Shown here: one piece after another, positions 7,457 to 62,345 of the stretch
Numbering within the stretch: position 1 is the first letter of the stretch
How the letters are laid out: each line of letters starts with the position of its first letter
From: Malacoraja senta
Taxonomy: Eukaryota
Reading direction: 5' to 3'
Length of the DNA: 64,000 nucleotides
Assembly (NCBI GenBank): GCA_038087875.1
Contig: CM075987.1
Span: 26,538,001 to 26,602,000, forward strand
Notes under the pieces: model-generated
Database searches by the model: none
Told to the model about the DNA's origin: nothing
Seen by the model: the letters and a program-made list of their open reading frames with translations, nothing else
Made by a program: the position numbers and the translations under genes

Positions 7457-9320
7457 TCCAGGAATGAGTGGGTGAGCATACGATGAGCGCTAGACAGCAC
7501 TGGGGCCTCTACTCGCTGGAGTTTAGAAGGTTGAGGGGGGACCTCATTGAAATGTACAGAATAATGAAAGGCATAGATAGAGTGGATGTGGAGAGGATGT
7601 TTCCACTGGTGGGAGAGTCTAGGACCAGAGGTCACAGCCTCAGAATTAAAGGGCGCTGTTTTAGAAAGGAGGCGAGGAGGAACCTCTTTAGTCAGAGGGT
7701 AGTTAATCTGTGGAACTCATTGCCACAGAGGGCTGTGGAGGCCAAGTCAGTGGATATTTTTAAGGCAGAGATGGACACATTCTTGATTAGAACGGGTGTC
7801 AAGGGTTATGGAGGAAGGCAGGAAATGGGATTAGGAGGCAGAGATCAGCCATGATTGAATGGCGGTGTAGACTCGATGGGCCGAATGGCCTAATTCTATT
7901 CCTACAACTTGTGAACATTTCCAAACTTCCTTCGTTCTTGGCTCTTCCCATTGTTATTTTCCCTCATTCTGCTTCCAGACACTTACAATTTCATACCTTC
8001 CGCGAGCTGACACACCGTAACTTGTAATTACAAGGCACTTTCAACGCAGCAGGAAAGCCCAAGGCATTACTCGAGAGTAACCAAAAACATGGCACTGAGC
8101 CACAACAGGAGTTATGAGAAAAGCTACCCAAAGGCTTTGTTACAAATTGTCTGGTTCAATGAAGATCTTGAAGGAAGGGAGGTGCGAAGGTGGTAAAGTT
8201 TGTCGGGGGCATTCGAGAGGCATTGGAACATGTTCCCGATGTTGGGGGAGTCCAGCACCTGGGGCCGCTGTTTAAGAATAAGGAGTAAGCCATTTAGAAT
8301 GGAGATGAGGAAACACTTTTTCACACAGAGAGTTGTGAGTCTGTGGAATTCTCTGCCTCAGAGGGCGGTTCTCTGGATACTAAATAGGGCTCTTAAAGAT
8401 AGCGGAGTCAGAGGATATGGGGAGAAGGCAGGAACGGGGTACTGATTGGGGAGGATCAGCCATCATCACATTGGTATACTGTACCTGCCTTCTCTCCATA
8501 TCCCCCGATCCCTTTAGCCACAAGGGCCACATCTCTGGAACTCTCTGCCACAGAAGGTAGTTGAGGCCAGTTCATTGGCTATATTTAAGAGGAAGTTAGA
8601 TGTGGCCCTTGTGGCTAAAGGGATCGGGGGATATGGAGAGAAGGCAGGTACAGGATACTGAGTTTGATGATCAGCCATGATCATATTGAATGGCGGTGCA
8701 GGCTCTAAGGGCCGAATGGCCTACTCCTGCACCTATTTTCTATGTTTTCTATTGAATGGCAGTGCTGGCCCGAAGGGCCGAATGGCCTACTCCTGCACCT
8801 TTTGTCTTTGACAACATGGTCGTCAGTAGTTGAGCAATGGGACTTGGGACCACTCAACACACCAGTCATACATAGAAACATAGAAAATAGGTGCAGGAGT
8901 AGGCCATTCGGCCCTTCGAGCCAGCACCGCCATTCAACATGATCATGTCTGATACAGCGTGGAAACAGTCCCATCGGCCCAACTTGCCCACATTGACTAA
9001 CGTCCCATCTACACTTGTCCCACCTGCCTGCATTTGGCCCACATCCCTCCACACCTGTCCTATCCATGTACCTGTCCCAACGTCCCAACGCCTCAACTAC
9101 CTCTCCGGCAGCTCGTCCCATGCACCCGCCACCCTTTGTGTGAAAAAACTACCCCACAGATTCCTATTTCATCTTTCCCCCCCTCATCTTAAACCAATGT
9201 CCTCTGGTTCTCAATTCCCCCACTCTGGGCAAGAGACTCTGAGCGTTTACCCGATCTATTCCTTTCACGATTTTGTACATCTCTATAGGATCACCCCTCA
9301 TCCTCCTGCTCTCCAAGGAA
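7457..9320. mobile_element. Cluster of CR1 3' fragments in both orientations
   Basis: LGLYSLEFRRLRGDLIE..TRGHSLRI..RVVNLWNSLP at 7457-7917, with further pieces at 8223-8800 and 8871-9320. Confidence 0.85.
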
Positions 9321-13415: not shown

Positions 13416-14132
13416 TAATGCAATATGATACGAAGACAATAGACAATAGGTGCTGGAGTAGGCCATTCCGCCCTTCGAGCCAGCACCGCTATTCAATGTT
13501 TATGTACTGATCATCCCCAATCAGTACCCCATTCCTGCCTTCTCCCTATATCCACTGACTCCGCTATTTTTAAGAGCCCTATCTAGCTCTCTCTTGAAAG
13601 CATCCAGAGAACCGGCCTCCACTACCCTCTGAGGCAGAGAATTCCACAGACTCACCACTCTCTGTGAGAAAACGTGTTTCCTCGTCTCCGTTCTAAATGG
13701 CTTACCCCTTATTCTTAAAAAGACAAGACACGATAACCTGGGGTCACTCAGCGGGTCAGGCACCATCTCTGCAGAAAAGGAATAGGTGACGTTTTGGGTT
13801 GGGACCCTTGTTCACACTGAGAGTCAGGGTAAGGAGATGTGGAGGAATCTCTTTAGTCAGAGGGTGGTGAATCTGTGGAATTCATTGCCACAGAAGGCTG
13901 TGGAGGCCAAGTCAGTGGATATTTTTGAGGCAGAGATCGACAGATTCTTGATTAGTGCGGGTGTCAGGGGTTATGGGGAGAAGGCAGGAGAACGGGATTA
14001 GGTGGGAGAGATAGATCAGCCATGATTGAATGGAAGAGTAGACTTGATGGGCCGAATGGCCTAATTCTACTCCTATCACTTATAAACTTATGGATGGGAA
14101 CCGAGAGATATGATACTTGATAATGATGTGCG

Positions 14133-16207: not shown

Positions 16208-16562
16208 CTTGAATATTTCTATGTGCCAGGTTGCTACGTGAATGAATCCTCATGAGATGTCTACTGCTATGTAGTAAGTCGGCACCGTGCCTGCAACTCA
16301 CATTGCACACTGCAAATCCCCACACCTAAGGCTATGGCTTCACGACAAGGCTCATTCCATGAGAAACACCAACAGTCATTCGGCAAGGCCTGCAGATGAG
16401 GTTTAGCGCGCAGCACAGCAAGAGTTAGAAGAAGGGCCTCGAACCGAGACATCACCCATTCCTTCATTCCAGAGATGCCGCCTGTCCCGCTGAGTCACTC
16501 CAGCATATTGTGTCCATCTTCACAGCAAAGGTAGGTGCTCAGCAAGAATGTTGTCCACATTA

Positions 16563-18562
16563 TAAGTGATCGGAGCAGAAATAGGCCATTCGCCCCATCA
16601 ATCCACTACACTATTCAATCATGGCTGATCTGTCTCTCCCTCTCAACCCCATTCTCCTGCCTTCTCCCCATAACCCCTGACACCCGTACTCGTCTGTGGA
16701 ATTCTCTGCCTCAGAGGGCAGTGGAGGCTGGTTCTCTGGATGCTTTCAAGAGAGAGCTAGATAGGGCTCTTAAAAATAGCGGAGTCAGGGGATATGGGGA
16801 GAAGGCAGGAACGGGGTACTGATTGGGGATGATCAGCCATGATCACATTGAATGGCGGTGCTGGCTCGAAGGGCAGAATGGCCTACTTCTGCACCTATTG
16901 TCTATTGATCAAGAATCTATCAATCTCCGCCTTAAAAATATCCATTGACGGCCTCCACATCCTGTGGCAATGAATTCCACAGATTCACCACCCTCTGACT
17001 GAAGAAATTCCTCCTCATCCCCTTCCTAAAGGAATGTCCTTTAATTCTTAGGCTATGGCCTCTGGTCCTAGACTCTCCCACTAGTGGAAGAGCCCATCCA
17101 CTCTACACCCACCCAATCCGGGACTATTGTTATTTGATAAGGTTCAATGAGGGGTCCCCTCATCCTTCTAAACTCCAGCGAGTACAGGCCCAGTGCCGTC
17201 AACCGCTCGTCGTATGTTAATCCACTCATTCGTGGGACCATTCTCGTGAACATCCTCTGGACCCTCTCCAGCACATCCAGAAATAAGACTTGATGGCTTT
17301 TCTGCAAAGCTCATTCGATGAGAACCACAAACAGCAAGGCCTACAGATAAGGCGTGGCGTGCAGCACAACAAGGGTCAAGACTCATCAAGAACGTATGTG
17401 GTCCACATCAAAATTCTTAATGGGTTGGACAGGCTAGATGCAGCAAGATTGTTCCCGATGTTGGAGAAGTCCAGAACAAGGGGTCACAGTTTAAGGATAA
17501 AGGGGGAAGTCTTTTAGGACCGAGATGAGAAAAACATTTTTCACACAGAGAGTGGTGAATCTGTGGAATTCTCTGCCACCGAAGGTAGTTGAGGCCATTT
17601 CATTGGCTATATTTAAGAGGGAGTTAGATGTGGCCCTTGTGGCTAAAGGGATCAGGGGGTATGGAGAGAAGGCAGGTACAGGATACTGAGTTGGATGATC
17701 AGCCATGGTCATATTGAATGGCGGTACAGGCTCGAAGGGCCGAATGGCCTACTCCTGCACCTATTTTCTATGTTTCTATCAGTGGTGAAAACATCAGGAA
17801 ACATCCCAGCATTTTTGTGCCTATCTTCGGTACTAAACCAGATTTTGGGGTTCACAAGTGATAGGAGCAGAACCAGTCTCCTGCTGAAGGTACTCCTCAG
17901 GTTGACCAGAGTGCTTAGCTCAGTCTGAGCTAGAACATAGAAGATTATAGCGCAGGAACAGGCCCTTCGGCCCACAATGTCAGCATACTATGGGTTGAAG
18001 GGGTAACATTAAGAACAGGGTGCGCCCGTTCAAATGGAGCCCCATCACACAAAAATCTCAAAGTAACCAGTCACTTGGAATCCGAGCAAAATCTGATTGA
18101 AGGTGAAACCAGATGGAGCACTTGAAATTTATGATGCACTCATTAAAGATGAACAAGGGAGTCTTGGTCTGGTGGATGACATTGCATCACAGATCCTGTG
18201 GTATCCACATACTTACTTTCATCAGATCATAAATTATAGGAGTAGAATTAGGCCATTTGGCCCATCAAGTCTACTCCACCATTCAATCACGGCTGATCTA
18301 TCTCTCCCTCCTAACCCCATTCTCCTGCCTTCTCCCCATAATCTCTGACATCAGTGCTAATCAAGAATCTACCTTCTCTGCCTTAAATATATCCATTGAC
18401 TTGGCGTCCACAGCCTTCAGTGGCAAAGAATTCCACAGATTCACCACCCTCTGACTGAAGAAATTCCTCCTCATCTCCTTCCTAAAAGAACGTCCTTTAA
18501 TTCTGAGGCTGTGACCTCTGGTCAACGAGTGAAAGCATCCTCTCCACGTCCACTCCATCCAA
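16563..18562. mobile_element. Nested CR1 3' fragments
   Basis: Minus copy 16563-17278 interrupted by plus copy 16692-16907; plus copy 17409-17778; minus copy 18225-18562. Confidence 0.8.
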
Positions 18563-19269: not shown

Positions 19270-19311
19270 CCTTCCCTTCAAGAAAACTTTCAATGGCTCG
19301 TTCTCCACATC

Positions 19312-19352
<41 letters not shown>
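19214..19352. repeat. (CA)n and (GA)n microsatellites
   Basis: (CA)n at about 19214-19268 and (GA)n at about 19316-19352. Confidence 0.95.
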
Positions 19353-19361
<9 letters not shown>

Positions 19362-19392
19362 AGGAATTTTTTTTATGGCTGCTAAATATTTC

Positions 19393-19592
19393 NNNNNNNN
19401 NNNNNNNNNNNNNNNNNNNNNNNNNNNNNNNNNNNNNNNNNNNNNNNNNNNNNNNNNNNNNNNNNNNNNNNNNNNNNNNNNNNNNNNNNNNNNNNNNNNN
19501 NNNNNNNNNNNNNNNNNNNNNNNNNNNNNNNNNNNNNNNNNNNNNNNNNNNNNNNNNNNNNNNNNNNNNNNNNNNNNNNNNNNNNNNNNNNN
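19393..19592. other. Assembly gap (200 N)
   Basis: Run of N. Confidence 1.
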
Positions 19593-29913: not shown

Positions 29914-30780
29914 TGGGCAGCACGGTGGCACAGCGGTAGAGTTGCTGCCTTACAGCGCCCAGAGACCCGAGTTCGATCATGACTACAGGTGCTGTCTGTA
30001 CAGAGTTTGTACGTTCTCCCCGTGACCTGCGTGGGTTTCCTCCGGGTGCTCCAGTTTCCTCCGATATTCCACAGACACACAAGATTGCAGGATAATTGGC
30101 TTTGGTGAAAATTGAAAATTGTCCCTAGTGTGTAGGATGGTGCTAGTGTACGGAGAGATCGCTGGTCAGCGATGACTCGGTGGGCCGAAGGGCCTGTTTC
30201 CGCGCTGTGTCTCTCTAAAATGGGCGGCACAGTGGTGCAGCGGTAGAGTTGCTGCCTGACAAAGCCAGAGACCCGGGTTCGAATCTCACCACGTTTGCTG
30301 TCTGAACGACGTTTGTAACCGTGTGGGTTTCTCTGGGTGCTCCGGTTTCCTCCCACACTCCAAAGACGCAGCAGCAAATCCCAAAACCGGTAAAAATTGT
30401 AAAATGTCCCTCATGTGTAGGACAGTATTCTTCTTCTTGCGTTCGAGGCAGCAGAGGTTATGTAACATCCTGCAGGCTCTGTAGCCAGTTCAACGTGCTG
30501 TTGTCAAGGGCCGTGGGGGCTACCCCTCCACCAGGGGGGCGGAGGACAGCGCTGTTTGCTGGTCCGCTCCACACACGCAGGCTGCTGATGAACGCAGCCC
30601 CCAGCGATGCATGTTTGGTGTTGAACCGGCCGACTCCTGTACGGAGCTAGTTCAGGGCGACCCACTCTTTGTGGGGCAGGTCCGAGCCAGGTGGGGCTGT
30701 GGTGTTCGGTGCATTATAGTGCTAGTGTGCGTAGATCGCTGGGCCAAAGTGCCTGTCTCTGCCCTGTATCTCTAAAGTCC
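29914..30780 (+). mobile_element. Two tandem HE1-type V-SINEs, the second interrupted by Vingi
   Basis: Heads at 29914 and 30222. Confidence 0.8.
30428..30714 (-). mobile_element. Vingi/Ingi-type LINE 3' fragment inserted in an HE1 SINE
   Basis: Decayed minus-strand translation PPGSDLPHKEWVALN*LRTGVGRF..HRWGL..SAACVCGADQQT..LDNSTLNWLQSL, followed by a (GAA)n tail. Confidence 0.7.
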
Positions 30781-36432: not shown

Positions 36433-37395
36433 CACACAAAAACCTGGAGTAACTCAGTGGGACAGGCTGCACCTCTGGGGAAAAGGAATAGGTGACGGTT
36501 TGGGTCGAGACCCTTCTTCAGACTGAGAGTCAGGGGGAAGGGAAACGAGACTTACAGACGGTGATGTGGTGAGATGTAGAACAAATGAAAGAAAGATATG
36601 CGAAATAATAACGATGATAAAGAAAACATCTCATTGAAACATATAAGATTGTTAAGGGCTTGGACATGCTGGAGGCAGGAAACATGTTCCCGATGTTGGG
36701 GGAGTCCAGAACCAGGGGCCACAGTTTAAGAATAAGGGGTAAGCCATTTAGAACGGAGACGAGGAAACACTTTTTCCCACAGAGAGTGGTGAGTCTGTGG
36801 AATTCTCTGCCTCAGAGGGCGGTGGAGGCAGGTTCTCTGGATGTTTTCAAGAGAGAGCTGGATAGGGCTCTTAAAGATAGCGGAGTCAGGGGATATGGGG
36901 AGAAGGCAGGAACGGGGTACTGATTGGGGATGATCAGCCATGATCACATTGAATGGCGGTGCTGGCTCGAAGGGCCGAATGGCCTACTCCTGCACCTATT
37001 GTCTATTGTCTATTGTCTATTGAAACAGGCGATTGTTAGCTGTGGCCTAGGTGAAAACGAGTTACAGCCAATGAGACTCAACAAGACGACTTTGAAGCTG
37101 GTACGACTTGGGTGGGGGAGGGATGGAGAGAGAGGGAATGCAGCGGTTACTTGAAGTTGGAGGAGTCAATATTCATACCACTGGGGTGTAAGCTGCCCAA
37201 GCGAAATATGAGATGCTGTTCATCCAATTTGCGTTTGGCCTCACTCTGACAATGGAGGAGGCCTCGGACAGGAAGATCAGTGTGGGAATGGGAAGGCGAA
37301 TTAAAGTGTTTGGCAACCGGGAGATCAGGTAGGTCCCGGCGGACTGAGCGAAGGTGTTCAGCGAAATGATCGCCCAGTCTACATTTGGTCACATC
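36433..37395 (-). mobile_element. Penelope-like element 3' fragment: GIY-YIG endonuclease C-terminus, 3' UTR and pseudo-LTR, interrupted by a CR1 insert
   Basis: ORF 37147-37392 reads TKCRLGDHFAEHLRSVR..PVAKHFNSPSHS..EQHLIFRLGSLHPSGMN, typical of PLE GIY-YIG domains. Past the CR1 insert it continues into the CTGAAGAAGGGTCTCGACCC terminal repeat. Confidence 0.85.
36628..37021 (+). mobile_element. CR1 3' fragment inserted in the Penelope element
   Basis: ORF 36660-36923 with CR1 motifs and a (CTATTGT)n tail. Confidence 0.9.
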
Positions 37396-47420: not shown

Positions 47421-47904
47421 CTCCCAACATCTATCCTAGCATGGCCCCTCTGGATCTTGTATGTTTTAATAAGAACACTTCTCGTTTTTTCTAAATTCCA
47501 AACAAAAATACAGGTCTATTTTTCTGCAGCCAACAGTCACAAGAGGACAGACCTTTTATCTCAGGAATTGGCCTTGTGAAATCTCTTTCCGGATGTGTCC
47601 AGTGCCAACATATTCCTTCTTAAAAACAAATGTACGGAAGCCATAAACAGGATGTGATCAAAGTCTACGCTTTCACTTCTGAAATAGGTCGATGCCTATT
47701 TTCTTCCACATAATTTAAAGGATATTTTTACTTATTCAGTGTCAACAATCATTGTCGAAAATCAGACATAATGGTGGGGTCTAGATTGGTGTTGTTGTAC
47801 AATTCATAAGTTTATCAGTGATAGAAGCAGAATTAGGCCACTCGGCCCATCGTCGACTCTGCCATTCAATCACGGCTGATCTATCATTCCCTCTCAACAC
47901 GGTT

Positions 47905-48328
47905 TATACTCGCTAGAATTTAGAAGATTGAGGGGGGATCTTATAGAAACTTACAAAATTCCTAAGGGGTTGGACAGGCTAGATGCAGGAAGATTGTTCC
48001 CGATGTTGGGGAAGTCCAGGACAAGGGGTCACAGTTTAAGGATTAAGGGGAAATCCTTTAGGGCCGAGATGAGAAAAACATTTTTCATACAGAGAGTGGT
48101 GAATCTCTGGAACTCTCTGCCACAGAAGGTAGTTGAGGCCAGTTCATTGGCTATATTTAAGAGGGAGTTAGATGTGGCCCTTGTGGCTAAGGGGATCAGG
48201 GGGTATGGAGAGAAGGCAGGTACGGGATACTGAGTTGGATGATCAGCCATGATCATATTGAATGGCGGTGCTGGCTCGAAGGGCCGAATGGCCTACTCCT
48301 GCACCTATTTTCTATGTTTCTATGTTTC
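47905..48328 (+). mobile_element. CR1 3' fragment
   Basis: ORF 47928-48233 RGDLIETYKI..TRGHSLRIKG..RVVNLWNSLP and a (TTTCTATG)n tail. Confidence 0.9.
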
Positions 48329-48886: not shown

Positions 48887-50079
48887 ATTAATTTATTTAT
48901 CTCTGCCTAAGATTGGAACATTGCAGGCGTCGTACGTTCAACTATTGTCACCCAGAGACAGAGAACAGACAAGAAGAATTTAATCCAAATACAAACTGGA
49001 TTTTAACAGGAGTCTTTTAATTCCTTTTACAAGAGACCTGCCAAATACTATCTTTGATCTGTATTTATCTTTGAGGTGTAATTTTTGAGGGAACTATTTA
49101 TAATTATAAGCCAATTAATCAAAGTCATTTTAAGGTTTTAATATCAAAGTCTCTGGTTAGGCACGTGGAATAAAAGTTCTGATGTTGAAATGTTCGTGAC
49201 ACTTAATTCACGCCAATATTTCAGAATTGTATGAATTATTCAAGTAACACATGTTTGAACTTAGAGGTTGATTTTTGTACGGATTTTGAATGTCTACATT
49301 CACTTTGTGAAGTGATATGGCAGCAGTTTGTAAAAAAATAGAGCTCATTTGCAAGATACTTCAAACACAAAAAGGGATAATGTTATTGTTTAATGGAATA
49401 TTTTAATTATAAATATTAATCCTTGCGACTTTACGCTGGGAGGTTTTGACAAGTAATCTGACAAAGTGAGTAAGCCCGATGTAGAATTCTTCAGAGATGC
49501 CATTTCTGTTTTGACTTGGATTTTCTGGTCTTTCCAAGGACAAGTTTTGTTGCTTTGCTTCTCGACGCATGCTCACCCTGAGCACTGTTCCACCGAGAGG
49601 AATTGTACTGCCTGCCTGAGTGAGATTAGGCAAATCTACACTCTGCAGTGAATGAGGGAAGGATCTTTAGTTCGGTTTAGTTTCGTTTAGTTTAGAGATA
49701 TTGCACGGGAACAGGTCCTTCGTCCCCCCCCTCCGGTCCGCACTGACCAGCAATATCCTACACACACACTGTGGGCAATTTTACATTTAACCTACAAACC
49801 TGTACGTCTTTGGAGTGTGGGAGGAAACCGAAGATCTCAGAGAAAAACCCATGTGGTCATGGGGAGACAGTGCAAACTCCGTACTGACAGCACCCGTGGT
49901 CGGGATCGAACCTGGGTCTCTGCAGCTGTAAGGCAGCAACTCTACCGGTGCGCCACCATGCCGACCATTTACTAGGATAAACAGGCATCCAGTTTATTGT
50001 CTTTAGGCGTTAGGCATTTAGAGATACAGCGCGGAAACAGGCCCTTCGGCCCACCGAGACGGCCTCGACCATCCCGTAC

Positions 50080-50279
50080 NNNNNNNNNNNNNNNNNNNNN
50101 NNNNNNNNNNNNNNNNNNNNNNNNNNNNNNNNNNNNNNNNNNNNNNNNNNNNNNNNNNNNNNNNNNNNNNNNNNNNNNNNNNNNNNNNNNNNNNNNNNNN
50201 NNNNNNNNNNNNNNNNNNNNNNNNNNNNNNNNNNNNNNNNNNNNNNNNNNNNNNNNNNNNNNNNNNNNNNNNNNNNNNN
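50080..50279. other. Assembly gap (200 N)
   Basis: Run of N. Confidence 1.
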
Positions 50280-50619
50280 TTGTAGCTCGGTACACGTGAC
50301 AATAAGCTGTACTGGAAGATCAAAAAGCTGAAACACAAATCACTGTCTTTGACCACTAGCTCAAACTTTTAATATTCATTTTTTAGCCTGGGAAATAAAA
50401 TGCCTCACTCAACTTCCAGAGTTTTCATGGAGAGACCTAATTGAGTTGAGTTGAGTTGAGTTCATAAGTGATAGGAGCAGAATTTGGCCATTCGGCCCAT
50501 CAGGTCTACTCCACCATTCAATCATGGCTGATCTATCTTTCCCTCTGAACCGCATTCTCCTGCCTTCTCCCCGTAACCCCTGACACCCAGTTGAATTGAT
50601 TTGAGTTAAGTTGAGTTGA

Positions 50620-50936: not shown

Positions 50937-51850
50937 GTCAAAGGCATGATCAGTGCCTGAGATCATATGAGCAATCAAATCAGTGAATGGAAGGAATTTG
51001 TTGGTTTTTATCAGGCAACTGAACCAACTAGAGAACGGTCCTGATATACTATCGACCTCCTCAGAGACCCTCGGACTGTCTATAATCAGACTTAACTGGA
51101 ATCTATCCTGCTCCAAACATTATTCCCTTTATCCTGTATCTGTACACTGAGGACGGCTCGGTTGTAATCACGTATAATATTTGCGCTGACTTACGCAAGA
51201 AAAAAGCGTTGCACTGTACCTCGGAACACGTGACAATTAACTAAATTAAATTAATTTTGGAGGGATATGGACCAAGCGCAGGCAGGTGGGACCAGTGTAG
51301 CTGGGACATGATAGTGGGTCAGCATCTCTGGAGAAAAAGGTTGGGTGACGCTTTGGGTCGGGACCCTCCTTCGGACTCCGAAGGGTCTGACCGCTGACGT
51401 GCGAACAAAAGATTTTCACTGTACCAAATCTACTGTACTGATGTTGGGGGAGTCCAGAACCAGGGGCCACAGTTTATGAATAAGGAGCAAGCCATTTAGA
51501 ACGGAGATGAGGAAACACTTTTCAAACAGAGAGTTGTGAGTCTGTGGAATTCTCTGCCTCAAGAGGGCGGTGGAGGCCGGTTCTCTGGATACTTTAAAGA
51601 GAGAGCTAGATAGGGCTCTTAAAGATAGGGGATATGTGGAGAAGGCAGGAACGGGGTACTGATTGGGGATGATCAGCCATGAACACATTGAATGGCGGTG
51701 CTGGCTCGAAGGGCCGAATGACCTACTCCTGCACCTATTGTCTATTGTCCACTGTGTGAATTGAATCTCGACCTAATTGAATTTCAAGGCTGTTGTGCTG
51801 CATCACTGACGAACATTGAAAGCAAGCTGTAAGAAACTGCAAAAACCTAC

Positions 51851-52041
51851 CTCCAAGGATAGCGGACGAGAGGACATGCGTTCCGTATTTTCGGATGACG
51901 GTGTCGATCACTTGCTGGGTTGACGGCCTCCTCCCAAGCAGGCGGATGCTTCTCTGGAACTCCGGCATGAGTGGGATGGGATTGCGGATGAGGTCCCTCC
52001 TCTCCACCGCAGTATTCCTCACCTTCCAACGTGCAAATTCT
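51851..52041 (-). CDS. BRINP1: BRINP1 internal coding exon (191 bp, MACPF domain; equivalent to mammalian exon 3)
   Basis: Acceptor ttgcAG (plus strand ctgcaa 52042-52047) and donor GTAGG (plus strand cctac 51846-51850). Translates (R)[63 protein letters not shown](G), with the MACPF signature YGTH-x7-GG. Recalled BRINP1 sequence ([28 protein letters not shown]) fits better than BRINP2/3 (KVNNLA..LAPEF). Confidence 0.95.
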
Positions 52042-52318
52042 CTGCAACGACAACAGCAGGACGGTCAAAGCCACGCCGGCAGGTAGCGTGGAAACAAACA
52101 AGGTGTCAGGGGTCATGGGATTGAGAGGGAAGGTTAGATCAGCCATGATGGAATCCATGCTATCATACAAAAGATATCTGTACATTCGAAGAAGTCGAGG
52201 AGATACGAGCTGTAAAAGCTGCTCATCGCTGCGGACACTCTCCATCTACTCTGATGGTCTTTATGTTTCTTTAAAAATTAACGGTAGATTAATTTTGTGT
52301 GGATGTATAAATTATAGT

Positions 52319-60940: not shown

Positions 60941-61713
60941 GCACCATCCTACACACTAAGGATAATTTACAATTTTACCAAAGCCAATTAACCTACAAAC
61001 CTGCACCTTCTTTTGTTTTAGAGGGACGGAGTGGAAACAGGCCCTTCGGCCCACCGAGTCTGCGCCGACCAGTGATCCACGGTATACTGGTTCCATCCTA
61101 CACACTAGGGACAATTTACAGAAGCCAATTAACCTACAAACCTGTACGTCTTTGGAGTGTGGGAGGAAACCGGAGCTCCTGGGGAAACCCACGCAGGTCA
61201 CGGGGAGAACGTACAAACTCCGTACACACAGCACCTGTGGTCAGGATCGAACCCGGGTCTCTGGCGCATTAAGCGCTGTGAGGCAGCAACTCTACCACTG
61301 CGTCATCTCCACTCTTTCGGGACTCTTGTCTTCCAATTGAACCAAGGTTTCCACTTCATCACACACCAACTATTGTGCCAGTACAACGGACGGCATGGTG
61401 GCTCAGCGGTAGAGCAGCTGCTTTATAACACCAGAGACCCGGGTTCGATCCTGACTACGGGTCCTGCCGGTGTACGTCGAAATCAGGCTGGCACTGCTTG
61501 ATGTGGCGAGGGAGATCGTAAATCCTCTCTGTACCCTTTCCGGATTGACAACATCTTTCCCATAACACGGTGCCCAGAACTGAACACAATGCTCTAAATG
61601 TGGCCTCACCAACATCTTATACAACTGCAACATGACCTCCCAACTTCTATACTCAAAATAAAGTCCAGTCAATGCACATCAAGGATAGTCCGATGGTCTC
61701 CAATGAGGTAGAT

Positions 61714-61879
61714 CTTCTTCTTATCAAGTCCACACACAAGATTAGAAGTTGTTCAGCCAGAGCTGAACACACATCTCGGCATCTACATACAATGGTGTCT
61801 GTCTTGTCACTTCTTGTGCGTGGTGGTGGAAAGATTGGTGGGAACAGGGCCGCGACGTGAACGCTCTGTCCTTGACCCC
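61714..61879 (-). mobile_element. Short non-autonomous retroposon with ribozyme head and (GAA)n tail (Ingi/Vingi-type SINE candidate)
   Basis: TSD AATGAGGTAGAT at 61702-61713 and 61880-61891 (14 bp if the preceding CC is counted). It interrupts a Rex1-type 3' fragment precisely. The minus-strand 3' end is TAAGAAGAAG, and there is an 8-bp hairpin at 61750-61769. Confidence 0.8.
61828..61879 (-). ncRNA. Predicted minimal HDV-like (CPEB3-type) self-cleaving ribozyme
   Basis: GGGGUC-AA-GGACAGA-GCG-UUCACGU-CGC-GGCCCU-GUUCCCA-CCAA-UCUUUCC. P1 is 6 bp with a G1.U wobble, P3 is GCG/CGC, L3 is UUCACGU, P2 pairs 6 of 7, J4/2 is CCAA, and P4 is absent. Confidence 0.75.
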
Positions 61880-62014
61880 AATGAGGTAGATAGTAGCTCA
61901 GGACTGCTCTCTAGTTGTTGGTAGAATGGTTCAGTTGCCTGATAACAGCACTTACTGTATCATTGTTTCATTGTATTGCATTGCTCTCCTTTATGGCAAG
62001 GTTGGAGACAGAGG

Positions 62015-62345
62015 AACACAGAGTGCTGGAGTAACTCAGTGGGTCAGGCAACATCTGTGGAGAACATGGACAGGTGACGTCTCGGTTTCGGGATCACTCT
62101 TCAAACGCCAGACCCCGAAACGTCACCTATCCATGTTCTCCACAGATGCTGCCTGACCCGCTGAGTAACTCCAGCACTCTGTGAAACGTCACCTATCCAT
62201 GTTCTCCACAGATGCCGCCTGACCCGCTGAGTTACTCCAGCACTCTGTGAAACGTCACCTATCCATGTTCTCCACAGATGCTGCCTGACCCGCTGAGTTA
62301 CTCCAGCACTTTGTGTATAAACCAGTATCTGCAGTTCCTTGCTTC
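62015..62345. repeat. Penelope pseudo-LTR with three tandem 66-bp units
   Basis: GAAACGTCACCTATCCATG... starts at 62117, 62183 and 62249, preceded by an inverted arm. Confidence 0.8.

Follow-up and report, generated by a model that had tools for sequence, protein, structure and literature searches.

A 64-kb window of the genome of the cartilaginous fish Malacoraja senta (the window meaning the whole stretch of DNA that was analysed) contains, at positions 61714-61879 on the minus strand, a non-autonomous retroposon of 166 nt. The first 52 nt of this element resemble the ribozyme of the mammalian CPEB3 intron, which belongs to the hepatitis delta virus (HDV)-like class. The unit, one copy of a family that numbers at least several hundred and roughly a thousand members, is almost certainly a retroposon that is associated with long interspersed elements (LINEs) of the Vingi type and carries a ribozyme-derived head. 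Our reading, to which we give a probability of about 0.65, is that it is a non-autonomous retroposon with no promoter of its own, and that a compact Vingi-like LINE in this genome mobilises it in trans.

The proposed cycle is as follows. With no polymerase III head of its own, the element would be transcribed within whichever host transcript passes through it. In that RNA, the first 52 nt would fold as a CPEB3-type HDV-like double pseudoknot from which helix P4 has been lost, and the fold would cut the RNA immediately 5' of its first nucleotide, G1. The cut would release an RNA with the ribozyme at its 5' end and a hairpin and ...GACTCGATAAGAAGAAG at its 3' end. Target-primed reverse transcription by the endonuclease and reverse transcriptase of the LINE would then place a copy of the released RNA elsewhere and, in doing so, generate target-site duplications (TSDs) of 10-14 bp.

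The insertion and its genomic copies

Read on the minus strand from 61879 to 61714, the retroposon starts GGGGTCAAGGACAGAGCGTTCACGTCGCGGCCCTGTTCCCACCAATCTTTCC... and ends ...GATAAGAAGAAG. Both sides of the element bear ATCTACCTCATT (61880-61891 and 61702-61713), and the two bases that follow it (GG) can be assigned either to the duplication or to the element, which gives a TSD of 12-14 bp. By sequence reading, the upstream TSD therefore occupies 61880-61891 and the downstream TSD, with the ambiguous GG included, 61700-61713. The element closes in a (GAA)n tail (GAAGAAG, 61714-61720), whose terminal GACTYGATAAGAAGAAG resembles the LINE end GACACGAAAAGAAGAAG. A perfect 8-bp hairpin, TGTTCAGC-TCTG-GCTGAACA, lies close to the 3' end at 61750-61769 and is a possible recognition element. 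An earlier note on this DNA, made from the letters alone, had described a clean insertion with a TSD of this length, a (GAA)n tail and no tRNA A/B boxes, and each of these was located on the minus strand or borne out by the searches. ARAGORN found no tRNA in the retroposon, and no tRNA-, 5S-, 7SL- or snRNA-derived Rfam family matched at E≤10 across 61500-62100. As judged by these two programs, there is no polymerase III head, and the retroposon is not a short interspersed element (SINE) in the strict sense.

The site into which the retroposon is inserted is itself another highly abundant repeat (61600-61655, 61684-61713 and 61880-61949). Empty-site paralogues of this flanking repeat were seen, as reads and contigs from several organisms cross the insertion point, with loose ends at 61713 and 61878. 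In polyA RNA reads and contigs, depth over the flanking repeat is several times that over the retroposon.

Copies were sought across the M. senta genome (1.94 Gb) with the 166 nt as query. Among 921 first-look candidates, all 40 that were scored were 91-100% identical to the query and extended from position 1-3 to position 162-166. Thirty copies were retrieved, the window copy included, and two pairs of these are segmental duplicates. They have unrelated flanks and TSDs of 10-14 bp, and 23 of the 30 begin GGGG[T/C]C, while the other seven differ in the first or second base only. To avoid bias toward intact 5' ends, a second genome search used as query just the 83 nt at the 3' end; it gave 376 candidates, 40 of which were scored, and 34 additional copies were retrieved at 276 nt each. 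Position 1-2 is reached by 26 of these and position 3 by one; three lack 4-6 nt, and in four a truncation or rearrangement lies near position 40 or 83. Sequence 5' of G1 is shared by none of the 34. Among the copies retrieved, 5' ends cluster at G1, as the earlier note had anticipated, and no extension 5' of the fold is seen among the 3'-selected copies. These results show that the retroposon family is real, beyond chance, and that it has a precise 5' boundary at G1.

Distances to the family consensus were counted over 58 copies, after removal of two duplicates and the four truncated copies. The median is 3.6%. The window copy lies at 3.0%, with five differences in its 166 positions, among them A12->C, which falls in P2, and U38->C, which falls in the linker. 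In an older subfamily, the body is longer by an insertion of 9 nt and the 3' strand of P1 has an additional C, the head being otherwise unchanged.

The ribozyme head and its sister families

The P4-less, CPEB3-type head occupies 52 nt (61828-61879, minus strand), with predicted cleavage 5' of the G at 61879. The 5' strand of P1 (GGGGTC, 61874-61879) pairs with a 3' strand, GGCCCT, at 61846-61851, with a G1.U wobble, and J1/2 is AA. P2 consists of GGACAGA at 61865-61871, for which copy comparison gives a family consensus of GGAAAGA, and TCTTTCC at 61828-61834. Both strands of P1 and the 3' strand of P2 are placed by sequence reading and by covariation. P3 (GCG/CGC) closes around L3 (TTCACGT) at 61852-61864 and is the same as in the Rfam CPEB3 consensus. 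HDV-like ribozymes have a J4/2 of the form C-N-R-A with a catalytic cytosine. Here J4/2 is CCAA (61835-61838), and its first C, which we take to be the catalytic C, aligns with the C that opens J4/2 (CGAA) in the CPEB3 model. Between J4/2 and P1, sequence reading and alignment place a J1/4 of GT and a 5-nt linker that stands in for P4 (61839-61845).

All the helices that had been named from the single copy are present where they had been placed, with a single C.U mismatch in P2 and no P4. Reads and contigs from several organisms carry the consensus A at position 12, so P2 pairs perfectly in the family (GGAAAGA/UCUUUCC), and only the window copy has the mismatch, which probably weakens this copy. 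P1, P3, P2, J4/2 and P1.1 of the head all take the form that characterizes the HDV-like class; P4 is missing in the short element, which has the 5-nt linker instead, and this helix is counted as dispensable.

The 19-nt core of the head occurs once in the 64-kb window and in none of 100 shuffles. The CPEB3 core given in the earlier note proved to be right, as the Rfam CPEB3 consensus (cmscan) includes AGCGUUCACGUCGCGGCCCC. When all of Rfam was compared with 61500-62100 at E≤10, CPEB3_ribozyme (RF00622) was the sole ribozyme family to match, and the only other match was a long non-coding RNA at chance level. The window copy gives a local match of 22.8 bits (E 0.0012) to model positions 13-46 of 78. 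The gathering score of the family is 35 bits, and an Rfam scan of the whole window at gathering thresholds returned no matches. Other copies of the short element do exceed this score, with single copies at 43.7 and 37.4 bits (cmscan). By Rfam, the head is of CPEB3 type.

A profile search of the same genome with RF00622 returned 59 scored hits, 39 of which lie above the gathering score; the top hit reaches 64.2 bits over model positions 1-78. In 14 control genomes, no hit lay above the cut-off. The M. senta hits form five families, each opening at the predicted cleavage base beside unrelated flanks. Family A (~60-64 bits) is a LINE with one open reading frame (ORF), families B (~60 bits) and D (~48 bits) are short repeats, and family C (~51 bits) is very near the mammalian consensus. 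Family E (36-44 bits) is the short element, which passes the cut-off even though it has no P4. At least four other repeat families are thus headed by full, P4-bearing CPEB3-type ribozymes (48-64 bits). By hand count from G1, family A is identical to the CPEB3 model consensus at 46 of 67 positions. Outside P4, 40 of 49 positions are identical by the same count, and six of the nine differences make up three compensatory pairs in P1 and P2.

Families B (loci L035, L039 and L043), C (L042, L044, L046, L052 and L055) and D (L045, L048, L054 and L056) continue ACCAC... after P2, as the short element does. Within each of these families, similarity stops ~80-110 nt past G1. The family C copy L044 resembles a retroposon of ~250 nt with a TSD.

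For covariation, 23 ribozymes taken from all five families (22 distinct rows) were aligned and scored on the double-pseudoknot structure, the structure being drawn from the same sequences and the sequences being related to one another. In this alignment, 90.1% of cells are paired, against 34-46% when the partners are slid by 1-3 columns. Changes on both sides are seen in 13 of 25 pairs (4/7 in P2, 2/7 in P1, 1/3 in P3 and 6/7 in P4), and none of 500 shuffles reached the covariation score. Over the 22 distinct sequences, pairing amounts to 85.5% in P1, 94.2% in P2 and 90.9% in P3, and the P1.1 C-G pair is found in all 22. J4/2 is C-N-A-A in 22 of the 23 rows (CGAA, CTAA, or CCAA in the short element), and one family D copy has CGAT. 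By inspection, its first C is kept in all 23 rows, and in the alignment listing the column is nearly invariant. Where P2 of the short element differs from that of its sister families, the differences are compensatory. Covariation in P1 and P2, which was to be looked for if the fold of the earlier note was correct, is thus found across related families of the same genome.

The probable partner LINE and the mechanisms weighed

Family A is represented by ~3.14 kb that is common to five copies at 97-98% identity. The LINE has one ORF of 934 aa with apurinic/apyrimidinic endonuclease (APE) and reverse transcriptase (RT) domains (Pfam RVT_1 3.1e-32, Exo_endo_phos(_2)), and a Pfam search of this ORF gave no RNase H match. 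It starts GGGGATC at its 5' end and closes with CACGAAAAGAAGAAG at its 3' end, and three copies have TSDs of 9-11 bp. The LINE is young and is present in low copy number: a search with its first 300 nt gave 22 candidates, all of which were scored, and 11 long matches open at query position 1-4.

A compact body of ~3 kb with a single APE and RT ORF and no RNase H is the architecture of Vingi elements, and the LINE has it. Its protein relatives, found in many animals, Anolis among them, are 46-63% identical and lie on contigs of ~3.0-3.4 kb. In the supplement of Kojima 2018 (PMC5786205), two named Vingi sequences are shown aligned to an alligator SINE: positions 2-74 of the 3128-bp LINE Vingi-2_Gav and the first part of Vingi-4_Crp. 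By eye, the 5' ends printed there have the same layout of P1, P2 (GCAGAA/TTCTGC), P3, L3 and CGAA. In the available portions of that paper, Vingi does not appear in the list of ribozyme-bearing clades and these 5' ends are not called ribozymes. The link to Vingi-type elements that the earlier note had suggested is therefore upheld to the extent that named reptile Vingi LINEs, as printed in this supplement, carry 5' ends of the same sequence type. The assignment is made by architecture and published 5' sequence, and we call the LINE Vingi-like.

An autonomous LINE that shares both ends with the retroposon had been envisaged, and this was found in part. The ribozyme type at the 5' end and the (GAA)n at the 3' end are shared, but at the sensitivity of the search no LINE shares the 3' 83 nt: among the 40 scored matches to this segment (of 376 candidates) there was no LINE end, and all were the short element. 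The LINE 3' end GACACGAAAAGAAGAAG and the corresponding GACTCGATAAGAAGAAG of the short element agree at 15 of 17 positions. At the 5' end, the retroposon head and the LINE ribozyme are ~80% identical across the first 36 nt, with different P1 and P2 sequences. We infer that family A in particular is the mobiliser.

Some further loci are related to the LINE 5' end. At L041 (G000:C8:937440-937815), a stretch of ~30 nt from the start of the ribozyme, running from P1 to P3, stands 3-4 times in tandem 5' of a copy of the LINE. L038, L049 and G000:C6:38257057-38257151 match only the first ~97-102 nt of the LINE before unrelated sequence begins; these three could be either interrupted copies or bipartite derivatives that arose by internal deletion.

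Elsewhere in the window, 30428 is where the earlier note had placed a GAA-tailed piece of Vingi. The sequence there does end in a (GAA)n tail, but neither blastn nor tblastn showed any similarity between it and the LINE at E≤1e-3. The repeat in question (~30380-30440, minus strand) ends ...CTCGAACGCAAGAAGAAGAA, after which the sequence is unrelated, and its tail resembles those of the retroposon and the LINE. Directly beside it, at ~30215-30330 on the plus strand, is a tRNA-like head (GGCACAGTGGTGCAGCGGTAGAG...GGGTTCGAATC) typical of a polymerase III SINE.

A 5' end that is exact and heritable, at random sites and in an element with no polymerase III head, must be set either by an internal promoter or by self-processing. 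Co-transcription followed by self-cleavage at G1 appears to be the most economical explanation, because the core features other than the dispensable P4 are kept and because the changes in P2 are compensatory. Judged by these sequence features, the consensus P4-less head probably self-cleaves. Cleavage by the window copy, with its P2 mismatch, is to be considered less probable than cleavage by the consensus.

Several observations weigh against this reading. The score of the window copy, 22.8 bits, falls below the gathering score of 35. Nested folding, a method that cannot represent pseudoknots, favours for the 52 nt a competing helix of GGAAA (9-13) with UUUCC (36-40), and in stability the head does not exceed shuffled sequences (z +0.60 in a consensus-like copy, +0.25 in that of the window); the minimum-energy fold of the LINE ribozyme regains P1, P3 and P4. 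By-eye comparison with family D indicates that the loss of P4 apparently took the original CGAA cytosine with it, so that CCAA in the short element appears to be a replacement J4/2, which may not be competent. The 3' similarity between retroposon and LINE spans only ~17 nt, nine of them GAA repeat, and past the first ~36 nt neither the LINE nor any of the other ribozyme-headed families matches the retroposon body. Finally, RNA from one raw polyA RNA-seq run (~6% read) and three contig sets was inspected. At a depth of ~70-100 over the head, the polyA reads show no pile-up of molecule starts or ends. This test is weak, because the abundant flanking repeat inflates depth near G1, making it difficult for a pile-up to exceed the threshold, and a polyA library may miss cleaved, non-polyadenylated RNA, and the RNA was therefore treated as uninformative on cleavage.

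The competing fold with no thermodynamic signal for the head, the apparent loss of the original J4/2 cytosine along with P4 and the RNA ends without pile-up are all in line with a different account, in which the head is a dead relic. The P4-less sequence would then derive from a ribozyme-bearing Vingi derivative and would no longer cleave, and G1 would be set by an internal promoter, located within a few tens of bases of the 5' end, with a +1 start. There is a precedent for such a promoter in Pr77 of L1Tc, which the available text of PMC3383444 describes as a 77-nt region that is both an internal promoter and an HDV-like ribozyme. However, the head has no similarity to tRNA, 5S, 7SL or snRNA. 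The consensus P2 is perfect through changes that are compensatory relative to the sister families, and J4/2 is still C-N-A-A. The 52 nt are also near-constant between the older and younger subfamilies, which differ there by one C in a C-run, whereas the body differs by a 9-nt indel. A dead relic is thus an unlikely account of the family, though a more serious contender than the one that follows.

The body of the short element, which has no detectable relative, bears on another alternative, that the head is a passenger. The 5' end would then be processed or defined only in the context of the autonomous LINE, and the short element would spread by RT template switching from LINE RNA to host RNA, with the head as a piece of LINE 5' sequence that does no work in it. 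SINEs that contain LINE 5' pieces as their middle parts are described in the available portions of Kojima 2018 (PMC5786205). Yet the head is no copy of the young LINE ribozyme, since P1 and P2 differ, it has no P4, and the first 36 nt are ~80% identical. Moreover, the short element has subfamilies of its own and a uniform structure in dozens of copies, which points to a master-copy lineage and not to repeated chimera formation. We consider this account very improbable. Release by self-cleavage and mobilisation in trans by the Vingi-like LINE is accordingly the reading that we retain.

In the same polyA run, reads over the 3' third of the retroposon (61712-61767) are strongly skewed in strand: 63-80 have the first mate on the minus strand and 7-15 have it on the plus strand. 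These counts do not tell which strand is transcribed. Over the 5' part of the retroposon, the read strands are nearly balanced.

Genomic context, CPEB3 origin and known systems

An open frame at 51735-52064 on the minus strand contains an exon of BRINP1, with the MACPF domain. The relatives of this frame are BRINP1 proteins, and the best full-length match, a shark protein, has 97% identity across the portion that aligns. The retroposon is on the same strand, ~9.8 kb 5' of the exon frame, and so lies sense to BRINP1 and upstream of the exon, as the earlier note had it. It is possible that the window copy could cut BRINP1 pre-mRNA. More widely, hundreds of sense intronic copies could serve as built-in pre-mRNA cutters.

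Dozens of other open frames in the window, on both strands, share the peptide ...FSQRVVNLWNSLPQRAVEA.SLD.FK.ELD... (for example 7468-7854, 13521-13811, 16535-16822, 36621-36923 and 47880-48233), which presumably belongs to the C-terminal end of the coding region of a LINE that is very abundant in this genome. Runs of N at ~19300-19560 and 50040-50290, seen as X in the translations, are assembly gaps or masked stretches.

The sequence kinship between these heads and the CPEB3 ribozyme also bears on the origin of the latter. In this fish, the sequences that match the curated CPEB3 model in full stand at the 5' ends of retrotransposons that look active. We lean slightly toward the view that the mammalian CPEB3 ribozyme did not arise de novo but was exapted: an early mammal would have received, in sense orientation in a CPEB3 intron, a Vingi-type LINE or a short retroposon derived from one, such as that described here, and the 5' end of this insertion would have become the ribozyme. 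In vertebrates as far apart as cartilaginous fish and crocodilians, elements of the Vingi type would on this view carry the ribozyme as a 5' processing device. The human genome has been reported to hold traces of Vingi, in a paper that is silent on ribozymes and CPEB3 (PMC5753468). In the literature searched, which largely left out subscription journals, no paper was found that links Vingi or fish retroposons to the CPEB3 ribozyme. If this origin is true, Vingi elements are the long-missing outgroups for the evolution of the CPEB3 ribozyme and supply a natural P4-less variant as well. It would give a concrete, testable origin to one of the few mammalian self-cleaving ribozymes, and one that has been linked to memory.

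The proposed mechanism would also add Vingi to the LINE clades that use HDV-like ribozymes for 5' processing. Vingi elements are under development as gene-insertion tools in which the native 5' UTR (untranslated region) is retained (PMC13708176), and a ribozyme in that region would be of practical interest for such tools. The short element, in turn, can be regarded as a natural experiment on how far a eukaryotic HDV-like ribozyme can be trimmed. That non-autonomous elements can retain the HDV-like ribozyme head of a LINE is already known. What is new here is the vertebrate host, the Vingi-like clade, the sequence kinship with the CPEB3 ribozyme and the natural P4-less form in a eukaryotic transposon.

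The CPEB3 ribozyme (RF00622) is one of the closest known systems. The short element has the same P3, L3 (UUCACGU) and 3' strand of P1 with the UGU that follows, and its J4/2 has the same C-N-A-A form; the LINE-type ribozymes match the whole model (48-64 bits). In contrast to the short element, however, the CPEB3 ribozyme has P4, and the short element has a P1 of 6 bp and CCAA for CGAA. The CPEB3 ribozyme is also a single orthologous locus, in the CPEB3 intron of mammals, whereas the ribozymes described here are multi-copy and dispersed, stand at the 5' ends of mobile elements and belong to a cartilaginous fish.

Vingi-clade LINEs and their bipartite non-autonomous derivatives were reportedly described by Kojima et al. 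in 2011. The family A LINE shares with Vingi LINEs a compact length of ~3.1 kb and one ORF that encodes APE and RT but no RNase H, and in both cases non-autonomous relatives keep the 5' end. Unlike the bipartite Vingi derivatives, the short element is not a simple internal deletion of the family A LINE.

A similar way of life is known from NARTc, RIME and SIDER of trypanosomatids and from the R2 SIDEs of Drosophila, which passages of PMC4035085, PMC3383444 and PMC3414825 describe as non-autonomous elements with HDV-like ribozyme heads. As far as these passages go, such elements likewise keep the ribozyme 5' end of a LINE, are released from co-transcripts by self-cleavage and are mobilised in trans, as is proposed here for the short element. 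They differ in belonging to the Ingi/L1Tc or R2 clades, in their hosts, in having ribozymes unlike that of CPEB3 and in keeping P4. R2 elements are moreover site-specific, unlike the short element with its random sites.

Minimal HDV-like ribozymes that have no P4 are represented by drz-Mtgn and by the theta ribozymes of phages in the available portions of PMC10879173. These have the same P4-less HDV-like double pseudoknot as the short element. According to the same source, they come from metagenomes and phages and adjoin tRNAs. They have no sequence relation to the short element. Unlike drz-Mtgn and the theta ribozymes, the head of the short element arose in a eukaryotic retrotransposon lineage whose relatives retain P4.

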